Origin: an uncultured Planctomycetia bacterium
GTDB taxonomy: Bacteria > Omnitrophota > Gorgyraeia > Tantalellales > Tantalellaceae
Direction of reading: 5' to 3'
Assembly (NCBI GenBank): GCA_964572255.1
Contig: CAZNEE010000002.1
Span: 121,129 to 185,128 of the forward strand
Length of the DNA stretch: 64,000 nucleotides
Part shown: one piece after another, positions 4,596-53,046 of the stretch
How positions within the stretch are numbered: position 1 is the stretch's first letter
How the letters are laid out: each line of letters begins with the position of its first letter
Made by a program: the position numbers and the translations under genes
Notes under the pieces: model-generated
Databases searched by the model: none
Told to the model about the DNA's origin: nothing
The model's input: only the letters and a program-made list of their open reading frames with translations

Positions 4596-5249
4596 TTATT
4601 CTCTTTCGCCAAATATCTTTGTTCCTATTCTAACAATATTCGCGCCTTCTTCAATAGCTATCTTATACGAATTTGTCATGCCCATGGAAAGATACTTCAT
4701 CTCAACATTCGGCATGTTCCCCTTTTTTATTTGATCGAATACTTTTTTTGTTTCGGTAAAGTACGGCCTTGCACCCTCGGGGTCTCCCGAAAATGGCCCC
4801 ATGGTCATGAGTCCGGCAACTTTTATATTCTTAAACGCGGATATTTCTTTCACGAGATCTGTCGCTTTTTCCGGAAAAACACCGAATTTCTGCTCTTCCC
4901 TCCCGCTATTAATTTCAACAAGAACCGGCATAACTTTATTTATCGCTTCGCATCTTTTATTGATCTCGTCCGCCAATTCTATTGAGTCCACCGTCTCTAT
5001 TAGATCGAAGACTTCAACAGCTTTTTTTACCTTCCTTCTCTGAAGATGCCCTATAAAATGCCACTTGACCTTCTTGCCGACCGCATTATATGCTTCAAGG
5101 GCTTCCTGCACATAATTTTCCCCGACAATTTTAATGCCCGCTTCAACGGCTTCTAAAACTTCATAAGGCGTTCTTGCTTTAGCCGCGGCAACAAGCTCTA
5201 CGCCTTGAGGAAGCTCGTCTAATATTCTCTTCACATTCTCTTTGATCAT
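4596..5249 (-). CDS. yggS: YggS family pyridoxal-phosphate homeostasis protein
   Basis: 217 aa; LVAAAKARTP...IVGENYVQE...HFIGHLQRRKVK...GMTNSY pattern of the YggS/PLPHP family. Confidence 0.8.
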   Translation of the reverse strand: MIKENVKRILDELPQGVELVAAAKARTPYEVLEAVEAGIKIVGENYVQEALEAYNAVGKKVKWHFIGHLQRRKVKKAVEVFDLIETVDSIELADEINKRCEAINKVMPVLVEINSGREEQKFGVFPEKATDLVKEISAFKNIKVAGLMTMGPFSGDPEGARPYFTETKKVFDQIKKGNMPNVEMKYLSMGMTNSYKIAIEEGANIVRIGTKIFGERE

Positions 5250-5315
5250 AAGTAAAAGTCATTATAAGGCGTAAGCATCTTTTAGGCAAGGTTCTTATGC
5301 GGAAAACAAGAAATA

Positions 5316-8300
5316 TTAAGCCGCTGCTCTGACTCCTAATTCCCTGTAAAATTCTTTCTTGAGGAGTTCTCTATCAATGGGCTCTGCTTTTGGCATGAAA
5401 GTAAATACCCTCGGGCTATCTTCATCAAACTCCAGCCCTATCTCGGGATAACTCTTCTTCAGTTCACTGATCAAGACTTCGAACGGTAAAACTTTATTAA
5501 AGGCAAGCTCTAAAGCCATGTTAATCATATCAACGATCCTTATGTAATTTTCTTCATTCCCATTCTCCGGCCGCTTATTGATCTGTTCAGGATCGATCCT
5601 CACCAAAAGCGCCCTGTCTCCCGTTTTAGGATCATGTAAAGGCTTGAACGCTTCTTCTTTTACTATATCCTCATGCCCTAAAACGATGATGTTCGAAAAG
5701 TTGACTTTTTTATTATCTGCTTCTTTCAGCAGCTGTCCGGCGAAATCATCCCCCTCTTTCCTGACAATATGGATATTTTTGATCCCGAGGCTTCCGGCGA
5801 TCCTGTATATCTCGCTTAAAAGCGGTTGTATTATATCGGCCTGTTCTTTTGGTATCCAGCTGGTCTCCAGCCCGATCATAATATTTTGTTCGTCATTTTT
5901 GACCCCCCCGCCAAGATCCCCATTTTTAACTTTATCGGCATAAAACCTGAGCATATCCATGAAAAGCATTGCCATCTCCTGAGCCCTGGTAAATTTGCCT
6001 TCTGTCCGCTTCCCTGCGGAAGGTTTATGTCTGATAAAATATAACGCGCTGTTATACACATGCTTGCTGTCCTTATAACTCGTTTCGACATCCATGATAT
6101 CGCCAGTGATCCCGCTCAATATTCTATATTTTCCGGCCGATCTGAGTATCTCGGCCACGGCGTCAATATCGCCCAGCTTTTCATCACGGGTTATGCACGG
6201 ATCATTCCATATCATCGCTATTCCATCATCATGGAGCATGACCGGCAATGCGCGGGCAAAGCGACTTAATGCGTCTCCCCCGATATCGCCGTCCCAATAG
6301 CTTGCAAGTTTTTTGTGCCAGGCGGGCACACTCTCTCCCGGCGAATCGATCAAGTTAGGCATGTTCCAGATGATCCTGTCGAAAACGCCGTCAAAAACAG
6401 GTTCTCCGTTTTCTGAAATTATATTATCATGGGTCACGGTCTCGATATCAAACCCGGCTATCTTAGCGGTCAGGCGAGTGTTTGCCGCTGCAAGCGGATT
6501 TATATCAACGGCATAGATCTTTCTGCCTGTTTTAAGATACGCTATCCAGCTGTCTATGCCCGAACCGGAACCCGCGATCAAGACCCTATGCCCCTTATCC
6601 AATCCTATATCATTCCACATAGCAGGGATTATCTTGGCATCAGAAACCGTCATTTCCGCCGGCGTATATACAGTGGGAAATACCGGGATAATGATCTTCT
6701 TTTTGCCTTCTTCTTCTTTAAAAATTCTTTCAAAATCCTGGTCGGATAATGTTTCCGGGGTAAAGGTCTGTATATCTATTTTTCCTGTCAGGGTATCAAC
6801 CCCGATATAATTATAGATATCTGTTTCCTGGCGGTTGAAATTTGAAATAAGCTGGCCTTGTCTTCTTCTCTCAGCGGCAAAAGAAAGCAGCAGCTTCTTG
6901 TCCGCATTCCTTCTTGTTATGAAATCTTTCCATTTCTGCGCGGCCTCAGGATCGGTCATATCGGGAAAAACAAAATTGTAAGGCGTAAGATCCAGATAAT
7001 AGATTTCATCCTGTGCGGGAGCGCCTTTGACAACAGGAAATATCCCTATTAAAAGACCCTGTTCATTATGTAAAAACTCGAATTCCCTTGTTTTCTCTCC
7101 GGCAAGTTCTCTATAAAGCACATCTAATCCGCGCGGAGTTCCGTACATCATAGATGTTTCGGGGATCCTTATCGTGCGAATGATGGTATTACTCCACCCT
7201 TGTCTTTCGGAAATTATACCGGCCTTATTGATCTCCAATGCCTGCAGGAACTCCCACGAAGCCATGTCTTTATAAAAAGCTGCGTCAGCCTCCTGCGCCT
7301 TGACCAATTTTGTTCCCGTTGCAACTGCTTCTTGTTTCTTGCCTGGAATGAAACGAACTTCAGATCTTATCTTTCCCTCGATATTGTCCAGTTCATCCAA
7401 AACATAATCACCAAAGATTTTTACTGCCTTTCCTTTTATGGGAACATCCGATACAACAAATGTACTGTCATCAAAAACTTTTATGAACTTATGAAAACGT
7501 TCTTTATTGTCAGTATCTTCGATATATACAGGAATTTTTTCCGCAGAATAAGCCTCTCCGACAACGGCTTCGAACGGTTTAAATCCCCTGTTTTTCCTTC
7601 TGAAATCAGGCCCTATATACTCATCTCCTTTCAGTTCAAAACCCAGATCTTCCACAACACTCACCAGGAAAGGATTCTGAACAAAAATGCCAAATTCTAT
7701 GTAGTAAGAACCGTTGTAAATAGCCCCCTGTTTCAGTCCGGACAACAGAACTTCCAGGAATGCCCGGGCGTACCCTCTATTCCTGTAAAGATTATCAACA
7801 AAAATACAATCGATTTCCGTGTCATTAAATCTGATATAACCAACAGGATCCCCATCCCCGCCGTAAAAATCCAGACTGCCATGATTCTCGGAAGACATGG
7901 GGAAATATTCGAAGAACAGTTTTTCATTATTGGGTGTAATAACATGCCCTGAGTAGCCTTCTTCTTCGAAAATGCTATTGCAGACTTCAGTTATTTCAAT
8001 AACCTCAGGATATTCCTCGGCAAAAGTCGCTGCTGTCAACCTTCTCTCTTTTAATGACCTCAAATAAGGCCCGACCATGATAGAACCAGTGTGATCGCCT
8101 TTCATCCAATAAGCGCCATCAATATAAGTAACAGGGGTATTATTCTCTAAAATAGCGACCCAATTATGCGTATAAGGCTTATCAAAGCCCCAATAATATC
8201 CTCCGACAACTTCCACTCGGCTGGGCGAATCCCCTCCCAATGGTAATCCATATTTCCTGGAAATGATCTCCGCCAGAGCTAAGGCGGAAATATAGCATTC

Positions 8301-11300
8301 TTTTACCGGGTATCCTTTTTTCACTTTTTGCCGCATAAGTTCCGTAAAACGATTTTCAATAGCTTTGAGATGCAAATACAAATTATCATCCGATGGCAGC
8401 ACTGAATGCGGATCTTGAACCTTGCCGTCACCGTAACCCGGAGGTCCGGGTTCGGATTTTAATTCGTTCTCTCCATCATACACCCTTATGCCCGAAGCCC
8501 AATCACTCTTATCGTACGGCCAAACTGTTACTTTCTTTCCTCCATGCCTAACTCCGATATAATATGGTTGCCCCATTAACGTTATGCTTCCATCTTTTCC
8601 GATCTTTCTTTCTGCAGGTATTGAGGGTTTTTTACGTACCACCTTTTTTCTCGGCTTTTTGACCATCTCATGCTTTTTACGTTTCTTTGTTCCTTTATTA
8701 TGGGAATTATAGCTCTCGATCAATCTTTCTACGGAATATTCTCCTGCAACTTCTTCCTCACTTTTTTCTTCCCCCTTCATCCTGTACCCAAGATGCGCGA
8801 CTTCATGGTTAAGCCATCTGGCATAAGAAACTAGATCATTTCTTCTGATCATTCCCAGAAATTCAAGAACTTTGCGCGGGATCAGCAGATTGCAGGAACG
8901 CGCAGCGCCATTTTCATCTCTCCAGGACCCGGGGTGAGTGATAAGTCTGAACGAACCTTTTTCCGGAAAAGAGATATTGCTTGTTTCTGCAAATTTATAA
9001 AGAACATCATAGAAATATTTCTCGGGGGGGCTATGTATATGGATCTCTTCTTCTATGCCCCTGCTTCTCATCTCGCTTAAGATATCTTGCCCTAATCCTT
9101 TTTCTGTTGAGATCTTATGATCTCTTTCAAATACATCCCAATAAACCCCCCATGTTTTATTGATAACGGCGTGCTGCTGGGCATTTAACACATACTGAAC
9201 CCATCTGCCGTCTTTTTTTACTAAAGCAATCGCGGGCGGATCATCGGAAGGAATGCCTTTTTTCTTATCCGATAACCTTGGCGATTCAGGCATTTTCCGT
9301 CCCCGGGAATAATTAAAACCTCTTCCATATCTGTCTCCGCTTCTTCTTTCTCCATCAATGTAAAACGTCAATTTCGGGCTGACTTCCTTGACTTTCACTG
9401 AGACAGCTTCACCTTCACTAAATCTTTTGCCTCCGCAAAGACTAAGGGGCATGAAACCTTTAACTTCTCCCTCATAAACAAGTTCATATCCCGCCAATGA
9501 ACCATCGCTCCTGCGGCGAGACTCTCTATTTACGAACACCTTAACTTCCTCTCCCGATCTCTCAGCTGCCTCCAATTCATACAATAGATCTCTTTTTCTT
9601 TCATTCGCCATCATCTGTCTTCGGCGAATAGAGAACCTGGGTTCGGGAATTATCCCCCTCCATTTACAATCGACGAGAACAACGTTCACTTTTCTGCCAA
9701 GCATATCATCAGGATTAGTTCCATAGGGGCATTCTCTCGAGCTAATGCGTCCTTTTATCTCCTTGAATTCAACCACGTAGTAGTCAAATTTGCCTCTATA
9801 ACTGTAATGATCTTCCACGATCTTGACCCTAAAAACTTTTTCAGGATCATCTTCCCCCTGCTTTATCTCTCTGATACCTAAATGATAATTAAAGACGGAT
9901 TTTGCTTTTTCGTCCAACTTGTCCAAAATAGCCTTTGATATTTTTTTATATTCATCTTCTTCTTTGCTGACCAAATAAGAAAACTCTGCGGGTTTTTCTA
10001 TTCTGCGCCTTGCATCAACAAACCTGTTCAAGTCCGCTTCTGCAATACAGTTTTCCGCTTTTCTTTTTGCTTTTGGCAAACCATGTTTTTTTAAATATAA
10101 AAAAGCCTCCAGGCTTGACAGCCTGCCTAAGCCGTCTATTTTCCCTTCAGCAGCCAACTTCATTCTTTCTTCGATCCTTTCATCTAAAAGGACTATTATC
10201 CTAATCTTTTCCCGGAAAAAAGCTTCCCTCTCTCCGAGCTTTAGGGCTTTCCATGCCCTATCGGAAAGTTTGAACTTATCACGTCTCCTGCTGTCGCTTT
10301 TCAGTAATTTACGTTCTTCCAAAAGGTCAATGACGTCTATAAGTTTGATCCGCTCATCATGAATCTTTTTCCTTACATGATCTCTCATTTCCCCTAAGAC
10401 ACGATCGGCTTCTTTCTTTGCATCTATTTCCGGCAATAATTCCGGGCGTTCATCCAAAACTTTATCGAGAAACACCGTAAAATGATCCGCCAGATCATCA
10501 TCACCCATGCTCCTAAGCTCTCCCAGGCGCCTGCGCATTTCATCAACCGCATAAGATGCTCTTTCAGGTTTCTCTTCACGTATAATCTCAAGGATATCAT
10601 TGAGCTCATCTCTCGTTCTTTCTCCCGAAGAATGAGTATCTTCACTTCCTTTATCCTTATCCGCGGGCTGGTCTGTGTGGGGCGTACCCGGGCCGAAACC
10701 GTCGGTCTTATCTTTATTGTACAAAACCTTAATGCTGAAATTTGGACTGCCCCCCTTTAAGGGGCCTGTCCTTCCGCTCAACATTATTTCTTTCACATCG
10801 GCGTTAAACTTTTCAGGAGCATCTCTCGGTATCCGCGGCTTGCCTCTTATTTCTATTAATACGTCTTCAACCGACTGAGCCACAACGCCGATTACCTTAT
10901 TCCCGATCTTAACGACCAGTTTTTCGTCTATTGTAATAACGGTGCCTTCCCTTAACTCTTTGACAAGCTCCAGTTCCTCTGTCCATTCATTACGTTCTAT
11001 CTTATATTTATTCTTTGTTCCTTCAACATGCTTTAAACGGAGATAAGCCAGCGGAAATACTGTTTCTATGTCTCTGATCTCGATCTCGCCCATCACATCA
11101 TAACTCCAGAAGCCTTCACCTGTCTTAGCGTCATTAATATCCTCGAAGCTTTGCCACTCCCGGCTTTTTTCGTAATTAAGAAGATCTCCGGAATAGAAAG
11201 TGACCTTTATTTCGTCAGCGAAATATTTTTTGAACACGTGTAGGTTATATAGCCAGGGTGTATCTATATAAATTTCATTGATCCCGTTTGTGACAGCAAA

Positions 11301-27787: not shown

Positions 27788-27946
27788 AGCAGATTTTAAT
27801 CGTAAACTGTTCGCAAGAGCAGGACACAAAGCCAAAGGGGCTAAACAATGCTTTCAGCCAGCCGGCTGCCGATTGACACATCGTTAAAGTGTTGGCATAA
27901 GTATTGATCAGACCCAACCTTTCGATGGTTGGGTTTTTTGTTTTTT
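27788..27946 (+). promoter_or_regulatory. c-di-GMP-I (GEMM) riboswitch-like leader with intrinsic terminator, upstream of the first PEP-CTERM gene
   Basis: AAACUGUUC-GCAA-GAGCAGGACACAAAGCC...GGGGCUAAACAAUGC closely matches the Vibrio Vc2 aptamer (AAACCAUUC-GAAA-GAGUGGGACGCAAAGCC...GGCCUAAACCAUUGC). Followed by hairpin CCCAACC-UUUCGAU-GGUUGGG plus a U-tract. Confidence 0.7.
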
Positions 27947-28056
27947 ATAAGTAAAAAGTTTTTAAAAGGAGGTGATGAAAAATATTTCTTGCAAGTTTTT
28001 TTGCAGTTATATATAGGTAAGTTTTAAAAATCTAAGAAGAAAGTGAGGTGATAACG

Positions 28057-28659
28057 ATGAAGAAAATGTTGATCTTGATCTGTTTTGTATTAGCTATAGC
28101 GTTTATGGTAATACCATCGAAAGTTGAAGCTAGAACCATCGAAGATGATGAAGATATAGGCCCACCTCCTGGAACAGTACTCGAATATTGTGAGTGGTGG
28201 CCAAGTGAAACGGGTGACCCGGATTTTATAGATCTGAATTCTGGTGACAATTATTATGACCCTGAAACTGAAACTATCGTTTCAATGACAATCTCTGTTT
28301 GGGGAAGATCTAGCGATCAGCATGATGGTCAAGACAGCACAATTGAAGTATATATAGGCAGTACTGCTACTCCGGGGAGTCATTTGCAGCACGAGACCAT
28401 AACTCATGGCGATGAACTGGAGACAAAAACTATCACATTAAATGCTGCTGCTCTGGCCGATATCTCTGGAGACGGTAAAATAAACCTTAGATGGCACGGT
28501 CTTTCCGGAGGCGCAGGTGATCCTGACGGAGACACATTTGCTTTGGCTGGCTACCCTTCCTACGAAGCACATACCCCCGAACCGGCAACAATTATATCAC
28601 TACTTCTGGGCGGATTGGGAATGGCAGTAAAGAGGAAAAAGTTGTTCTTTAAGCAATAA
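28057..28659 (+). CDS. secreted PEP-CTERM sorting-signal protein
   Basis: GAGGTG sits 6 nt upstream of ATG at 28057. Signal peptide MKKMLILICFVLAIAFMVIPSKVEA, acidic mature region, and C-terminal TPEPATIISLLLGGLGMAVKRKK (PEP motif, hydrophobic helix, basic tail). Confidence 0.75.
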   Translation: MKKMLILICFVLAIAFMVIPSKVEARTIEDDEDIGPPPGTVLEYCEWWPSETGDPDFIDLNSGDNYYDPETETIVSMTISVWGRSSDQHDGQDSTIEVYIGSTATPGSHLQHETITHGDELETKTITLNAAALADISGDGKINLRWHGLSGGAGDPDGDTFALAGYPSYEAHTPEPATIISLLLGGLGMAVKRKKLFFKQ

Positions 28660-40709: not shown

Positions 40710-42002
40710 CTAAACACTTGTAAGTTCTTTATTTTTAATAACTAATGTTGCTTCTTTATCCGCGCTTTTTGGAGTAAAATAAATTATTTGCCCCTTAGGA
40801 AGCATAAAATCCATCGATCTTACTCTTACATACTCCCTCGTATATCCCTCAATAAAGTCATTCCCTGCTTTATTCTCCAGCAAAACCTCAACCTCTTTGG
40901 ATAAAAATTTACGGCAAAATCGATCTTGAAGTTCCTCCCCCAATTTTATTAATTTTTCCACCCTCTCTGCGGAAATCTTATCAGGAAGTTTATTTTTCAT
41001 CTTTGAAGAAAGGGTCCCCTCCCTGTCGCTATACTTAAAAACATGCAATCTTGAAGGTTCTAATTCTTTGACTAACTTAAAAGTGTCCTCAAAATCTTCT
41101 TCTTCCTCGCCGGGAAATCCCGCAATAACATCCATAGTTATGCCGGCAAAAGGCATTCTCTCTCTGATACGATAAACTAATTTTCTGAACTGATCAGCAT
41201 CATACCTTCTTGCCATGGATCTTAAGATCCTGTCCGATCCGCTCTGAAGAGGTATGTGAAGATGATGACAGATCTTGCCTGAAGCGGCTACGGTCTCTAT
41301 CAGCTCGTCTGTAATATGGTTTGGCTCTATCGAACTTATTCTAAACCTGTAATCGCCTTCAATGGCATTGATCTCTTTTAAAAGATCCGCAAGCGTCTTA
41401 CCTCCTTCGCCTTTCCATGAACCGATACAAATGCCTGTAAGCACGATCTCTTTATACCCATGTTCTATAAGCCTTTTTGCTTCTTTGATTATCTCCTCGG
41501 CCGACCTGCTTTTTGACGGTCCTCTTACGAGCGAAACTTTACAATATGAACAATTTTGGTCACATCCATCCTGTATCTTTATAAAAGCTCTTGTGTGTGA
41601 ACTGAAATTTGTTATCTCTTCTTTTAAATCACTTCTTTTGCACTCTAATCCGTAATGCGCACCGATAAATAGCGGAAGATTCATCTTTTCGCTATTTACG
41701 ACGATCTCGTCAACCTCCGTCATCTCTAAAAGAGACTTGATATCCCCGTCAAATACCGCCTTACAGCCTGTTACAACGACCGTCGCGTTGGGATTTTCCT
41801 TTTTCAACCTCTTTATCAGCCTCCTTGTCTTGGCATCCGCTTTACCGGTAACAGTGCAGGAATTAACAACAACAATGTCCGCCGGAGCTGAAGGGGATTC
41901 CACAAATCCCACTTTCACAAGATTTTCTCTTAAGACCTGAGATTCATATTGGTTGACTTTGCAGCCCAATGTCCTGATCGTAAATTTATATGTTGAATTC
42001 AT
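40710..42002 (-). CDS. radical SAM methylthiotransferase (MtaB-like)
   Basis: N-terminal UPF0004 domain with CKVNQYES, radical SAM GCDQNCSYCKV, and a C-terminal TRAM-like domain. Confidence 0.75.
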   Translation of the reverse strand: MNSTYKFTIRTLGCKVNQYESQVLRENLVKVGFVESPSAPADIVVVNSCTVTGKADAKTRRLIKRLKKENPNATVVVTGCKAVFDGDIKSLLEMTEVDEIVVNSEKMNLPLFIGAHYGLECKRSDLKEEITNFSSHTRAFIKIQDGCDQNCSYCKVSLVRGPSKSRSAEEIIKEAKRLIEHGYKEIVLTGICIGSWKGEGGKTLADLLKEINAIEGDYRFRISSIEPNHITDELIETVAASGKICHHLHIPLQSGSDRILRSMARRYDADQFRKLVYRIRERMPFAGITMDVIAGFPGEEEEDFEDTFKLVKELEPSRLHVFKYSDREGTLSSKMKNKLPDKISAERVEKLIKLGEELQDRFCRKFLSKEVEVLLENKAGNDFIEGYTREYVRVRSMDFMLPKGQIIYFTPKSADKEATLVIKNKELTSV

Positions 42003-42729
42003 AATCCAAAACAGAAATTAAAAACAGGCCTGCTGTATCGCTTTTTAAAACCCTCCATCCAAGCGATACATGCCTGCAATTTTTCCCGGAAGCGAGACTG
42101 ATCTCTTCCGGCGTAAAATCCCCTTCCGGCCCAACAAAAACAATGATCTTGCCGGACTTAAAATCCCCTACTGCTTTTTTCAGGGAAACAGTTTTCCCCG
42201 ATAAACACGCAAAAAGAGCAAGATCGTACCTCTCTATTTCTTCAATCGCTTTCTTGAACGGTGTGACCTCGCTTACCGCCGGTATATCGGCTCTCCCGGA
42301 TTGTTTCGCGCTTTCAATAGCAAGTTTTCTCCATCTTGAAACTTTTTTTTCTCCCCCGCCTTCGTCAGGCCTCACAATGGTTCTACCTGTAACAAGAGGG
42401 ACGATCCTTTTAACTCCCAATTCGGTAGCTTTTTCAACGATATAATCCATCTTGCCTTTTTTAGGAATCGCCTGAGCCAAAACTACTTCCGATGTTTTTC
42501 CTGAAGAAGGAGTTTCGATCTTTACTACTTCAACAGTGGCTTTTTTACTTTTTGGATCTATTTTGTTAATAAAACCGGTATATTCATTCCCGGTGCCGTC
42601 AAAAATAATTACCTTGTCGGAATCTTTCAATCTCATCACATCGATCGCATGATGGAATTCTTCTCCCTCTATAAGGATCTCATTTTTTTTTGTATTGATC
42701 TTCTCTTTTGAAACGTAGAATCTGCTCAT
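41986..42729 (-). CDS. rsmE: 16S rRNA (uracil1498-N3)-methyltransferase
   Basis: RFYVSKE...GEEFHHAIDVMRLK N-terminal PUA-like domain plus SPOUT fold. Confidence 0.8.
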   Translation of the reverse strand: MSRFYVSKEKINTKKNEILIEGEEFHHAIDVMRLKDSDKVIIFDGTGNEYTGFINKIDPKSKKATVEVVKIETPSSGKTSEVVLAQAIPKKGKMDYIVEKATELGVKRIVPLVTGRTIVRPDEGGGEKKVSRWRKLAIESAKQSGRADIPAVSEVTPFKKAIEEIERYDLALFACLSGKTVSLKKAVGDFKSGKIIVFVGPEGDFTPEEISLASGKNCRHVSLGWRVLKSDTAGLFLISVLDYEFNI

Positions 42730-44207
42730 TATTCTTTTTCACCAAAAACTTCAGCCGTAAAAATGTATATTTCACACCCTCCGGTTTTCCAGGCATCCAT
42801 TGGCATCCCGGCTTTATGCGCGCAAAGGCTATTCATGAACTCTTCCCTGGTCCATCCGGTTTCAGTAGCAACCTGTGGAAGATACACGCCGCTCCTCCAT
42901 CCCGTGCGTACCATCACCCCATGTTTACCGACTTCGATCCTTTCATAATCATCGATCCTTTCCATCGGAGAAAGCGCGGAGATCTCGATATCTATATCAT
43001 CCATTTCCTCAAGCCTGACAGGCGAAAATCTGGGATCTTCCACAGCAGCTGCGATCGCCATATCGCGTACAGCCAAGTAAAGAGGTCCTCTGGCAACCAT
43101 GTTGCCGATGCATCCTCTAAGCTGGCCGCCTTTATGCAGCGTAACAAAAGCTCCCATATCCTGCTTGAGGGCCTCATCATCAACTTTCACTGCCAGGGTT
43201 TTGCCTGTTTTGAGATGATGAATAATCGCATCTCTCGCGATCTTTAACAGTTCTTTTCTCTGCTGGTGGTTGAACATGCCGGTCTCCTTTTCCTGTAACT
43301 CGTGACCCGTATCTTGTGGTTTTCGTTTTATGAACGCCGCGCTGAGATATCCTACAACACTTTGCTTCATCCCGGAAGTATCGCCGGAATTTGCGTACTT
43401 AAATATTTGAACTTCATCGGCGCCGAGCTTCTGCGATGCAAGCATGGTCGCATAAACCGCACCAAACCCGCACATGAGTTCGTGACGTTTCCTCTCGCTC
43501 TCATCATACAATAGGTCCGGTTTGAATCTTTTTATATTGCTGATGGTCTCTTTATCCCTTCTATTCGCTTCATCGTAAGGCAAATAATGGCACATGTCCG
43601 TACTTCCGATCATGAGATAATCGTCTCTTCCTTTGACCGCATCATAAACGGCATCGGCAATTATGCGGCTGTTCTCTCTTGTCTGGTTCCCTATCGCAAG
43701 TAAAACCGCTTCAGCATCCTTAAAAGCCACCTGAATGAAAGGTGTTAACATCTCTACGGAATTTTCATCCGAAAAAGCCTCGGGAAGACTGAATATCTTT
43801 TCGCTCGAGGAAATAAGCTTTTTTGATATTTCCTTGTTAATTTTCAAAGAGCCCAACGGAGTCACAAAAGCGTCTTCAGTAAAAACAGATATCCCGTCAT
43901 AATATTTCCTATGCGAAAAACCCACTACGATAACAACTTTGGGCGACTGCGGCATGGCTGCTTTATATCCATAAGCTGCTACATGGCCTGAAAACCTGAG
44001 ACCCGCGTGAGGTGAAATGAAACCGATGATTTTTCCGTCAATCTTGGCGGGTGTTGCCGCTTCAAGATAATAGTTGATCTCCCGCCTCAAAACATCCGGA
44101 TCAGCTGAATACCATGTACCGGCAAGATCCGCTTTTTTCTCACTGGCTTGCGAACAAGAAAAGCTGAAAACAGTAATGAATATCACCAAAACAAAGCGTT
44201 TTAACAT
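42729..44207 (-). CDS. AmmeMemoRadiSam system fusion protein: AmrB (Memo-like) fused to AmrA (AMMECR1), with Sec signal peptide
   Basis: ISPHAGLRFSG and STDMCHY are Memo motifs. LRGCIGN marks the AMMECR1 core. N-terminus MLKRFVLVIFITVFSFSCSQA|SEK is a signal peptide. Confidence 0.8.
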   Translation of the reverse strand: MLKRFVLVIFITVFSFSCSQASEKKADLAGTWYSADPDVLRREINYYLEAATPAKIDGKIIGFISPHAGLRFSGHVAAYGYKAAMPQSPKVVIVVGFSHRKYYDGISVFTEDAFVTPLGSLKINKEISKKLISSSEKIFSLPEAFSDENSVEMLTPFIQVAFKDAEAVLLAIGNQTRENSRIIADAVYDAVKGRDDYLMIGSTDMCHYLPYDEANRRDKETISNIKRFKPDLLYDESERKRHELMCGFGAVYATMLASQKLGADEVQIFKYANSGDTSGMKQSVVGYLSAAFIKRKPQDTGHELQEKETGMFNHQQRKELLKIARDAIIHHLKTGKTLAVKVDDEALKQDMGAFVTLHKGGQLRGCIGNMVARGPLYLAVRDMAIAAAVEDPRFSPVRLEEMDDIDIEISALSPMERIDDYERIEVGKHGVMVRTGWRSGVYLPQVATETGWTREEFMNSLCAHKAGMPMDAWKTGGCEIYIFTAEVFGEKE

Positions 44208-52268: not shown

Positions 52269-52862
52269 TTAACTTGTAAACTTTTTTACTGCCGTTCCTA
52301 ATAAAGCAAGGCCTAACATCACCATGCTTGCGGGTTCCGGAGATCCATAAATACCTCGTGCGGCACCTCCCTCGTCACTAATTGCTGCCGCTCCGACCCC
52401 GAAATAATAGGGCGAACTGCCCGCTTCCGGTACGACAAATGTATCGAACCCTTCTTGTTTTCCGACCAAGCTCACAACATCAGAATCAACCAATGTTAAT
52501 GTGCTATCCATCAATACAAAAACAACTGCATCGCCGAACTGTTCGTTATTCGAGTACCATTTGTAATTGATTACATCCCCTACTGAAAAAGAGGTAGGTG
52601 CAACATTGAACACCCCTTCATTAACAGTGGTAATTTTAAATATCGCCATATGTTCCGTATGATCAGCTTCATCTGAATCTTCAGGTGACTTTTCAACAGA
52701 TACACTTGGTCCGTTAGGTGCCCAATTTGTCATGTCGCGCATTTCTAAAAGAATATTACTCAATCCGAGCTCCCACATATTATATGTCGCAGCTTCAGCA
52801 CAAATTGTTAACGCAAATAATAGTGCAATAAACAATATAAAAGCTAAACAACATTTCTTCAT
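52269..52862 (-). CDS. secreted PEP-CTERM sorting-signal protein, paralog 2
   Basis: Same RBS/start context as the 28057 gene (GAGGTG 6 nt upstream of ATG). Signal peptide MKKCCLAFILFIALLFALTICAEA. C-terminal SPEPASMVMLGLALLGTAVKK. Confidence 0.75.
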   Translation of the reverse strand: MKKCCLAFILFIALLFALTICAEAATYNMWELGLSNILLEMRDMTNWAPNGPSVSVEKSPEDSDEADHTEHMAIFKITTVNEGVFNVAPTSFSVGDVINYKWYSNNEQFGDAVVFVLMDSTLTLVDSDVVSLVGKQEGFDTFVVPEAGSSPYYFGVGAAAISDEGGAARGIYGSPEPASMVMLGLALLGTAVKKFTS

Positions 52863-52892
52863 CATTCTCACCTCACTTTCTTTTTAGATTTT

Positions 52893-53046
52893 AAAAAACA
52901 AAAACCCAACCATCGAAAGGTTGGGTTACTGATTTTCTCCAACACTTTAACGATGTGTTAATCGGCAGCCGGCTGGCTAATTTCTTTCCTAGCCCCTTTG
53001 GCTTTGTTGCCCCGTTCTTCCGAACGGTTTACGATTAAAATCTGTC
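52893..53046 (-). promoter_or_regulatory. c-di-GMP-I (GEMM) riboswitch-like leader with intrinsic terminator, copy 2
   Basis: Minus strand: AAACCGUUC-GGAA-GAACGGGGCAACAAAGCC...GGGGCUA..., then ACCCAACCUUUCGAUGGUUGGGUUUUUGUUUUUU. The P2 stem shows compensatory changes relative to copy 1. Confidence 0.7.

Follow-up and report, generated by a model that had tools for sequence, protein, structure and literature searches.

A contiguous 11.3-kb Omnitrophota gene for a mosaic protein of recurring cassettes with genome-specific junction peptides

Introduction

Long open reading frames (ORFs) are a hallmark of the Omnitrophota, and both the function of their products and the cleavage of these products into pieces are still debated questions. 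Here we analyze a 64,000-nucleotide stretch of one such genome (GenBank assembly GCA_964572255.1, contig CAZNEE010000002.1, positions 121,129 to 185,128 of the forward strand), hereafter the window, which carries on its minus strand an 11.3-kb gene for a product that we call the mosaic protein. This protein is of middling length and small enough for dissection. It indicates that the building blocks of long proteins are cassettes found elsewhere as ordinary single genes, and that the borders of these cassettes can bear a genome-specific peptide kept by selection. The pattern of junction peptides is a new observation, and the GPGTP linker of the mosaic protein is one instance of what we term lineage-specific junction peptides. 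All features of the gene lie on the minus strand and are given in window coordinates, after their residue numbers in the protein. A first reading of the same DNA, made from the nucleotide letters and translated frames, is cited below as the preliminary description.

The mosaic gene is a single intact reading frame

The coding sequence of the mosaic protein runs from an ATG at 16586 to a stop codon at 5316-5318 (5316..16586) and comprises 11,271 nt and 3,756 codons for amino acids. The preliminary description had reported one minus-strand ORF of 3767 residues at 5316-16619, and that frame exists exactly as claimed: the ORF listing and its translation give 3,767 codons when counted from a TTG (5316..16619). 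The ATG at 16586 is the likelier start, and it is the one chosen by gene callers in public assemblies. A candidate sigma-70-like promoter, TTGACT-17-TATAGT (16633..16661), recognized by its match to the consensus only, falls inside the 93 nt that separate the open frame (TTG 16619) from the upstream gene; TTG 16619 would lie about 14 nt 3' of the candidate -10 hexamer.

The mosaic ORF is a real, contiguous chromosomal gene, a conclusion of which we are nearly certain. The whole 11,271 nt are identical in three public assemblies (ENA ERZ27256770, where the gene sits on a 498,635-bp contig, Logan SRR6963311, and Logan SRR6963479), in each of which the same genes flank it, and the exact protein is present on at least 8 contigs. 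The copy in ERZ27256783 differs at 4 nt spread over 3 codons (2 amino acid changes and 1 synonymous change), and its frame is still open. The preliminary description had named a chimeric assembly as the chief danger to its reading; as far as assemblies show, the gene passes that check, being intact in four other public assemblies. An artifact of this kind, whether a chimera or several genes fused and decayed, from which no single protein is translated, is exceedingly improbable. Repeats can indeed be joined by short-read metagenome assembly, and the mosaic protein has no full-length homolog. Against an artifact, however, stand the identical sequences from different runs and assemblers, the near-identical intact variant in one more assembly, and the fact that 11.3 kb free of stops is not expected by chance at 42% guanine-plus-cytosine (GC) content. 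A self-BLAST of the protein finds no internal repeats, and hence none able to mislead an assembler, and the coding strand holds no significant excess of internal promoters or terminators. The GC content and skew of the gene are like those of the remainder of the window. Terminator-like hairpins number 17 in window 5100-17000, compared with 10.6 +/- 3.2 in shuffled sequences; they are mostly on the plus strand, antisense to the mosaic gene.

Four central modules recur as separate cassettes

The middle of the mosaic protein consists of four modules, M1 to M4. A HMMER search with residues 1100-2299 as the query, against 1.84 billion (1.84e9) representative proteins, returned 46 matches besides the query and no full-length homolog. 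Each central module was matched separately, at 24 to 47% identity, both in long proteins of 1.7 to 6.4 thousand amino acids, where the module occupies differing positions, and in stand-alone proteins of 170 to 320 amino acids. A homology search for related giant genes had been suggested in the preliminary description, and its outcome is that no whole counterpart exists in that collection while the parts recur one by one. Three of the relatives carry source names, two of them Omnitrophota and one Endomicrobiales. Among 14 long relatives we find HATPase_c (5 of the 14), class I methyltransferases, HD, HTH_3, MutS_V, PAS, TPR, and UPF0489 domains. We conclude that each central module is very probably a shuffled cassette, which recurs in other long proteins and as a stand-alone gene. 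That M1 to M4 might be mutual paralogs was considered and rejected, since the self-BLAST shows no internal repeats.

Module M1 (residues 1114-1352; 12531..13247) has 17 relatives and is marked by the motifs P.ilpV.LG.KpAY, EG..L, GF..GYPleDI, and W...l..gY; it has no structural neighbor in the Protein Data Bank (PDB) and matches no known fold. Its stand-alone forms (n = 3) have hydrophobic, signal- or lipoprotein-like N termini, which the stand-alone forms of M2 and M3 lack. An alignment of M1 returned one protein only in a word-index protein search that saturates at 8,000 candidates and is insensitive for this family. One stand-alone M1 homolog, P0038 (L007 5048-6750), sits among housekeeping genes, and the gene that follows it after 3 nt codes for a 248-amino-acid, signal-bearing protein unrelated to any part of the mosaic protein.

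Module M2 (residues 1399-1612; 11751..12392) has 7 homologs and the motifs DHD, NFDxHxD, CYDYF, and ARS. M2 itself has no direct Pfam match. Its relative P0023 bears the NCBI name "UPF0489 family protein," and Pfam places PF12640 at residues 740-836 of that protein (E value 4.5e-7). The M2 profile is collinear with this Pfam-verified segment (E value 1.5e-7 in a one-target test), and the motifs align in order: NFDrHeD with HFDWHED, ViSiCYDYF with IICDIDFDF, and flArS with MALSPE. M2 is, by this transitive match, a divergent UPF0489-like putative metal-dependent hydrolase. The UPF0489 family is related by Pfam to arginase-type metal hydrolases. M2 shares with it the hFDxHxD, DxDFF-type, and aLSPe-type motifs, collinear with the P0023 domain, but has CYDYF where UPF0489 has a DIDFDF-type motif.

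Module M3 (residues 1665-1945; 10752..11594) has 15 homologs, among them stand-alone proteins of 244 to 297 amino acids without signal peptides, and the motifs CxVPNvKxGP, NKGISQTFLfWLS, HvFrKYFAd, and GxPxiP. It has no Pfam or PDB match and no relatives in IMG/VR. The profiles of M1, M2, and M3 found no match among PDB sequences, and Pfam found none for these three modules in 19 short homologs. Module M4 (residues 1981-2415; 9342..10646; 8 homologs) begins with a long helical part, after which come two beta-rich, S1/OB-like units. The S1-like segment of the preliminary description belongs here, and its standing is slight: Pfam S1 (PF00575) matched one unspecified member of a mixed set of short homologs that includes three M4 relatives (8.7e-5), and the M4 family profile reached ribosomal protein S1 in the PDB at an E value of only 0.47.

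Junction peptides mark cassette borders

The preliminary description had four modules separated by a conserved GPGTP linker, and we find the same: the peptide occurs three times, at residues 1353, 1651, and 1965, between four independent modules. The three junction peptides are J1, YDGPGTPPINQSA (12489..12536), J2, ADGFGPGTPRIDQMA (11595..11648), and J3, TDGFGPGTPHTDQPA (10653..10706), and their extended form reads DG(F)GPGTPx(I/T)(N/D)QxA. The expected count of GPGTP in the mosaic protein is 0.001, and the peptide is found nowhere else in the six frames of the window. It is spelled GGC CCA GGC ACG CCT, GGT CCG GGT ACG CCG, and GGC CCG GGT ACG CCC at the three sites. Synonymous positions thus differ among the sites, and the conservation is therefore on the peptide. 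The same difference led us to reject the idea that the junction peptide is a recombination scar at the DNA level or the trace of a recent duplication.

The mosaic protein is not alone in this habit. The family includes 29 proteins with a length of 1,100 amino acids or more, and 12 of these, the mosaic protein counted, contain a private motif of 4 or 5 residues that is repeated 3 to 10 times and recurs every 230 to 800 residues. The motif is DG(F)GPGTP in the mosaic protein (3 sites), (A/G)KSLG in P0015 and P0017 (10 strict sites, and 7 strict sites plus 2 SLGEE variants, respectively), of GASLG type in P0030 (5 sites), RSE(V/L)R in P0032, P0036, P0050, and P0051 (4 to 10 sites per protein), R-RSP(S/A)G in P0043 (10 sites), A-RTSTAD in P0040 (4 sites), and (L/F)DNGG in P0022 and P0048 (6 sites per protein). 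These sites coincide with the edges of homology. Half (50%) of the ends of BLAST homology blocks lie no more than 30 amino acids from a site, compared with 11% +/- 4 when sites are placed at random (500 trials, none above 25%), and only 4 to 5% of blocks cross a site, compared with 28 to 30% +/- 9 for random sites, the statistic being built on non-independent high-scoring segment pairs and on a protein set chosen by homology to the mosaic protein. The stand-alone M1, M2, and M3 proteins start and end at positions that coincide with the junctions.

What the motif follows can be seen in P0015 (2,740 amino acids) and P0017 (3,076 amino acids), which are encoded head to tail on one contig by adjacent genes that overlap in TAATG (L011 8001-24223; JGI 3300009008, Ga0115649_1001107). 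Each has its own signal-like N terminus and ends in ...AA. Their module content differs and their (A/G)KSLG motif is the same, so the motif follows the genome and not the module. The codons of (A/G)KSLG vary among sites, including Ser codons of the AGY and TCG kinds. From these comparisons we hold with good confidence that the junction peptides are under peptide-level selection.

The N-terminal third carries a signal-like segment and a membrane block

The hydrophobic anchor of the preliminary description is confirmed as a Sec-signal-like N terminus at residues 1-28 (16503..16586), with a Lys-rich n-region, a hydrophobic core, and then SFA|RG. The family has 27 proteins that start with Met and reach 600 amino acids or more, and in 17 of them a comparable hydrophobic segment is present, often with an AxA-like end. 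Farther along, residues 376-500 (15087..15461) form 25 pentapeptide repeats in a single register, a predicted right-handed beta-helix. About 25 such repeats had been counted before, and membership in PF00805, the family of tandem A(D/N)LXX pentapeptides, is secure, with scores of 76.9 to 99.2 bits where 20.2 is the cut-off, E values of 8e-22 for the whole protein and 8e-29 for a tile, and PDB pentapeptide proteins matched at 1e-14. Residues 1036-1100 (13287..13481) are a hydrophobic block with a Kyte-Doolittle hydropathy of 2.0 to 2.55. The membrane hairpin proposed earlier stands as a membrane block, but its two helices may be three, as two or three membrane-spanning segments fit the profile. 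Directly before the block lies a basic flank, RRRRDYVHIRAKKKR, which suggests that the N-terminal part is cytoplasmic; the signal-like N terminus, for its part, suggests export.

Two other N-terminal segments gave the preliminary description its picture of a self-contained signaling machine, and neither is recognized by any profile or PDB sequence. The first, the kinase-like segment at residues 319-346 (15549-15632), is a motif resemblance within residues 29-370 (15477..16502), a region with no Pfam, NCBIfam, or PDB match and a weak similarity to the N terminus of the relative P0033. Searches of Pfam, NCBIfam, and PDB sequences that allowed E values up to 10 matched no kinase to the segment, and its loop reads QGHLNDDN, with His where kinases of the HGD type have the catalytic Asp. 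The second, at residues 811-1000 (13587-14156), resembles sigma factors of the extracytoplasmic function (ECF) type at the motif level and lies within residues 501-1035 (13482..15086), a region that ends in a strongly basic segment. Here too no sigma-70 region 2 or region 4 model matched at E values up to 10 (Pfam, NCBIfam, PDB sequences, and tiles). The genuine RpoD of the window, used as the positive control, was found at 2e-25 for region 2 and 6e-23 for region 4.

On the signaling view, a membrane-tethered (pseudo-)kinase, an ECF-sigma-like domain, and an anti-sigma-like hairpin would couple sensing to transcription by proteolytic release. At the motif level residues 319-346 do recall the HGDLxxxNIL...IIDF loop of RIO/APH-type kinases, residues 811-1000 do recall sigma regions 2 and 4 with membrane segments directly after them, and some relatives contain HATPase_c, PAS, and HTH domains. 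We nevertheless judge this view very unlikely. Whole-protein and tiled searches are empty for kinase and sigma models, as are the PDB sequence searches, when the true RpoD is detected over a range of 1e-23 to 1e-29; the catalytic Asp is replaced by His; the N-terminal regions have no counterpart in the family members found, except for the weak P0033 match; and the hydrolase, GNAT, and methyltransferase cassettes show no signaling logic.

The C-terminal region tiles enzyme-like modules

Beyond M4 the protein continues with a candidate small zincin, the HExxH module (residues 2447-2627; 8706..9248; HEVAH at 8793-8807). The HExxH motif noted earlier is present once, at residue 2594 (expected 0.075), but its reading as a protease module is only weakly supported. 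The module is common to P0052 and P0042, and THxGxWR together with HE(V/I/L)(A/G)H is conserved in all three homologous HExxH modules. A polybasic stretch, plainly visible in the sequence as had been described, follows at residues 2631-2660 (8607..8696). Between it and the next segment, residues 2665-2712 (window 8451-8594) form a small beta-rich piece, GSITLMGQPYYIGVRHGGKKVTVWPYDKSDWASGIRVYDGENEL, that looks like the SH3-type barrel found at the C termini of some transposases and integrases; after the piece comes EPGPPGYGDG, which echoes the junction peptide in degenerate form. The next segment (residues 2720-2890; 7917..8429) contains Cys2764, His2807, and Asp2823 and possibly adopts a transglutaminase- or papain-like fold. 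Confidence is low in the structure models of the HExxH and Cys/His region (mean predicted local distance difference test score [pLDDT] of 50), and Foldseek searches with these models gave no match; the papain-like arrangement of the preliminary description accordingly keeps its residues, but for its fold has only a low-confidence model behind it.

The two enzyme domains that come after are better founded. Residues 2893-2985 (7632..7910) are a GNAT acetyltransferase domain whose acetyl-CoA motif A (pattern R/Q-x-x-G-x-G/A) has the sequence RNRGYA. PF00583 scores 22.3 bits in a 301-amino-acid tile, above the cut-off of 20.7, and 17.6 bits, below it, in the whole protein; the domain predicted earlier is thus a borderline member of the family by sequence score. 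After residues 2990-3290 (6717..7619), which have no match, residues 3297-3462 (6201..6698) carry a class I S-adenosylmethionine (SAM)-dependent methyltransferase segment of HemK2/MTQ2/PRK14968-like character, with GSGSG as motif I. The NCBIfam models PRK14968 (E value 2e-11; 43.5 bits, cut-off 162) and TIGR00537 (HemK2/MTQ2; E value 3e-9; 36.9 bits, cut-off 87) match far below their cut-offs, Pfam gives weak PrmA, PCMT, and MTS matches, and P0036 contains a homologous module. These matches bear out the Rossmann methyltransferase of the preliminary description, and a class I methyltransferase fold is likely. Catalytic motif IV of the HemK/MTQ2 type is (N/D)PPY; here it reads NMPN, not NPPY, outside the pattern of that type.

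The protein closes with a conserved C-terminal domain (residues 3488-3756; 5319..6125) that contains IIIGLDTSWIP and SNIVVLG, ends in ...GVRAAA, and, over residues 3488-3704, is common to the C termini of P0013, P0033, and P0052. The C-terminal 1,057 amino acids of the mosaic protein had no match in the insensitive word-index search mentioned above. Of the 35 family proteins with 600 or more amino acids, 16 have a C-terminal Ala, far more than the frequency of Ala predicts (P = 4e-9), and 9 have Ala-Ala. The Ala-rich ends of the family include RAAA (mosaic protein, window 5319-5330), ARAA, RKAA, SQAA, and RCAA; speculatively, they recall ssrA-like LAA tags or the substrates of tail-specific proteases.

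An exported precursor or an unprocessed scaffold

How might such a protein work? Our proposal is that it is an exported mosaic precursor of shuffled enzyme cassettes, with processing predicted at the junction peptides, a reading that we advance tentatively and with slightly more doubt than belief. The product would start with the Sec-type signal-like segment and would span the membrane about one third along its length; the rest of the chain would be autonomous modules, namely, the pentapeptide beta-helix, M1 to M4, the HExxH, Cys/His/Asp, GNAT, and methyltransferase modules, and the C-terminal domain. The junction peptides at the cassette borders would be recognition sites, most likely for endoproteolytic processing, and the predicted cuts would release M2 and M3 from between a membrane-bound N-terminal piece and a C-terminal multi-enzyme piece, four products in all. 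The cutting enzyme would be lineage specific; the protein's own HExxH or Cys/His module is a possible candidate, and an enzyme encoded elsewhere is the more probable one across the family. The protein combines an export signal with enzymes that depend on cofactors (acetyl-CoA and SAM), and signal- or lipoprotein-like N termini are present in the stand-alone M1 relatives and absent from those of M2 and M3; this mixture would suit enzymes whose site of action is the cell surface or a different cell. Action of this kind would fit the predatory or parasitic lifestyle proposed for the phylum (PMC10066038).

Several claims are nested in this proposal, and we do not hold them equally. Endoproteolysis is the most economical account of the junction facts, and it has already been proposed for Omnitrophota giants; a polyprotein is a plausible description of the mosaic protein. 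That the junction peptides are themselves cleavage sites is possible, and our doubts about it are somewhat larger than those about the proposal as a whole. More doubtful again is the general form of the idea, in which the motifs would be genome-specific endopeptidase sites and the long proteins of Omnitrophota and Elusimicrobiota would be bacterial polyproteins whose sites co-evolve with a protease, as in RNA viruses.

Other observations count against processing. Besides the dependence within the boundary statistic, the junction motif marks only three borders, and those of M4 with the HExxH module and of the GNAT domain with the methyltransferase are without it. A simple k-mer test found no recurrent motif in 17 of the 29 family members with 1,100 or more amino acids, and when JGI metagenomes were scanned for DGFGPGTPxxDQ, a second gene of the GPGTP type did not turn up; the lone match was rejected as a chance hit on an unrelated high-GC contig. 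No hidden Markov model (HMM) of Pfam or NCBIfam detects a protease family in the mosaic protein, and the HExxH and Cys/His models have the low confidence and empty Foldseek result given above. HExxH is missing from the other 11 motif-bearing giants; a protease serving junctions in general would therefore be encoded elsewhere, and the protein's own HExxH module was rejected in that role. The basic flank before the membrane segment favors a cytoplasmic N-terminal part, in conflict with a cleaved signal peptide. Finally, a Gly/Pro-rich peptide is also typical of a plain flexible linker.

Much of this can be read in favor of a different protein, an unprocessed, membrane-anchored multi-enzyme scaffold that works as one polypeptide. 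Its junction peptides would serve as structural linkers, or else as places where a partner docks, such as a chaperone, an export factor, or an assembly protein. We regard this as credible but on balance doubtful. GPGTP has the Gly/Pro-rich composition of flexible linkers and stands at only 3 of about 10 module borders, HMMs find no protease family, many relatives have no recurrent motif, and conservation at the peptide level would suit a binding site as well as a cleavage site. Other lineages, on the other hand, place motifs that are not linker-like (RSE[VL]R, [AG]KSLG, and RRSP[SA]G) at the same type of border; the motif tracks the genome rather than the module, which implies a specific recognition factor and not mere flexibility; and the modules also exist as free-standing proteins.

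If the junctions are cleavage sites, then peptide ends in proteomes at each genome's own motif become a testable prediction, and giant proteins could be split computationally into their real products. If the general form of the idea holds, the missing cleavage points of the class would be supplied, an undescribed cognate protease family would be implied, and a single shuffled precursor would be a means of building and exporting whole sets of enzymes. If the junctions serve only as linkers, the mosaic gene is an ordinary, unannotated example of a known phenomenon.

Relationship to known long proteins

Omnitrophota are already known to have long multi-enzyme ORFs that are unique in sequence and encode methyltransferase, GNAT, and HATPase domains (10.1101/2023.11.21.568195; 10.64898/2026.06.07.730766; PMC10066038). 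West-Roberts et al. (2023) call proteins of at least 10,000 amino acids "large" and those of at least 30,000 "giant," and they propose cleavage of Omnitrophota giants from the presence of C39 and S8 domains, stating that the cleavage points are unknown (10.1101/2023.11.21.568195). The "multi-enzyme" class draws on a repertoire of PF08241 methyltransferase, PF02518 HATPase, PF00583 GNAT, HAD, and HD domains, and 80% of sequence clusters in the same study are singletons (10.64898/2026.06.07.730766). Since most clusters are singletons and the long relatives of the mosaic protein match this repertoire, the uniqueness of the domain combination in the mosaic protein is typical of the class and not exceptional. 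The preliminary description had held that no described family has this combination; the exact combination is indeed unique, but the kind of gene is known in Omnitrophota.

The mosaic protein is a small member of this known class of long multi-enzyme ORFs. It resembles the Omnitrophota giants (the "Archaeovorins" and the multi-enzyme class) in its phylum, in its N-terminal signal-like and membrane segments, in being unique in sequence as a whole, in the tiling of unrelated enzyme domains (methyltransferase and GNAT here, with HATPase_c, HD, and PAS in relatives) between unannotated sequence, in the PilZ genes near its own gene, and in the post-translational cleavage proposed for the class. It has many distinct domains with none dominating by copy number, as the multi-enzyme class of Nielsen and Lui (2026) demands in proteins of at least 10,000 residues: pentapeptide repeats, a UPF0489-like module, GNAT, a methyltransferase, and at least 5 unrelated unannotated modules. 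It differs from the giants in length, at 3.8 thousand residues against the papers' thresholds of 7, 10, or 30 thousand, so that its 3,756 amino acids fall short of "large" and "giant" even as its host is Omnitrophota. Its one N-terminal and one internal hydrophobic block fall short of the numerous transmembrane regions of the West-Roberts description, which also includes a divergent SecA DEAD-like domain and, close to the N terminus, a C39 or S8 peptidase. Searches of Pfam and NCBIfam find in it no SecA DEAD-like, C39, or S8 domain (E values up to 1) and no dockerin, glycoside-hydrolase, or NUDIX domain. Those Omnitrophota papers contain no description of the M1 to M4 cassettes, of the conserved C-terminal domain, or of junction peptides specific to a genome, the words "linker" and "polyprotein" are absent from both giant-protein preprints, and a literature search for Omnitrophota and polyprotein returned nothing relevant.

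Comparisons farther afield are useful as analogies. Viral polyproteins, which have conserved protease recognition sites at their domain junctions, are alike in that a short, genome-specific peptide recurs at the borders of independent units, and different in that the host here is cellular. MARTX toxins are secreted mosaics of 3.5 to 5 thousand residues whose effector modules are shuffled among strains and freed by cleavage of the linkers between modules, and they offer a good analogy for how the mosaic protein may work. The mosaic protein is not a member of that family: Pfam and NCBIfam detect in it neither RTX or glycine-rich repeats nor an inositol-phosphate-activated cysteine protease domain (CPD), and the gene lies in a chromosomal housekeeping region of a non-pathogen. 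The polyvalent proteins of phages and conjugative elements, described by Iyer and colleagues in 2017, are reportedly very long, combine methyltransferase, peptidase, and other enzymatic modules, and are probably processed; they differ in that the mosaic gene has no mobile-element context.

That the gene is cargo of this kind, a polyvalent protein or a horizontally acquired, MARTX-like autoprocessing toxin, is in our view most improbable. The mosaic of enzymatic modules, including a methyltransferase, an acetyltransferase, and putative peptidases, would suit it, as would the pentapeptide domains, which are known in secreted effectors such as PipB2. The housekeeping flanks, their order conserved in all assemblies, and a GC content like that of the rest of the window speak against it. 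So do the searches: PADLOC gave no match, PHROG matches at E values below 0.01 all fall on the pentapeptide region, M3 is without relatives in IMG/VR, and neither toxin hallmark (RTX repeats or CPD) was detected. A scan of genome contigs returned only a cyanobacterial pentapeptide protein.

Host genome and gene neighborhood

The UvrA protein encoded in the window has named close homologs at 72 to 81% identity, all from metagenome-assembled genomes of Candidatus Omnitrophota/Omnitrophica, including Ca. Omnitrophus magneticus, Ca. Tantalella remota, and Ca. Makaraimicrobium thalassicum, and the genome is therefore Omnitrophota. Downstream of the mosaic gene lie genes for AroB, a NUDIX protein, IlvD, a thioredoxin-reductase-like protein, and YggS; upstream lie those for a spermidine-synthase-like membrane protein, a radical-SAM protein, and FeoAB, and farther along the window RpoD, DnaG, UvrA, and FtsK are encoded. 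The immediate upstream neighbor (16713-18932, minus strand) codes for 739 amino acids (758 codons when counted from TTG 18989), contains the spermidine-synthase domain, and keeps its position in all assemblies. On the source contig, several PilZ genes lie 7 to 10 kb downstream of the mosaic gene (L002 28743-31271).

The window also encodes an RNase P RNA of class A, three tRNAs, and two cyclic di-GMP-I riboswitches. One riboswitch (27791-27873, plus strand) is 5' of a small unannotated ORF (28048-28659, plus strand), and the other (52961-53043, minus strand) is 5' of a small ORF (52269-52871, minus strand) that is followed by the gene for an 816-amino-acid TPR protein. A gene for a Memo-AMMECR1 fusion protein of 492 amino acids (42729-44207, minus strand) lies near a radical-SAM/UPF0004 (MiaB-like) gene (40710-42002, minus strand).

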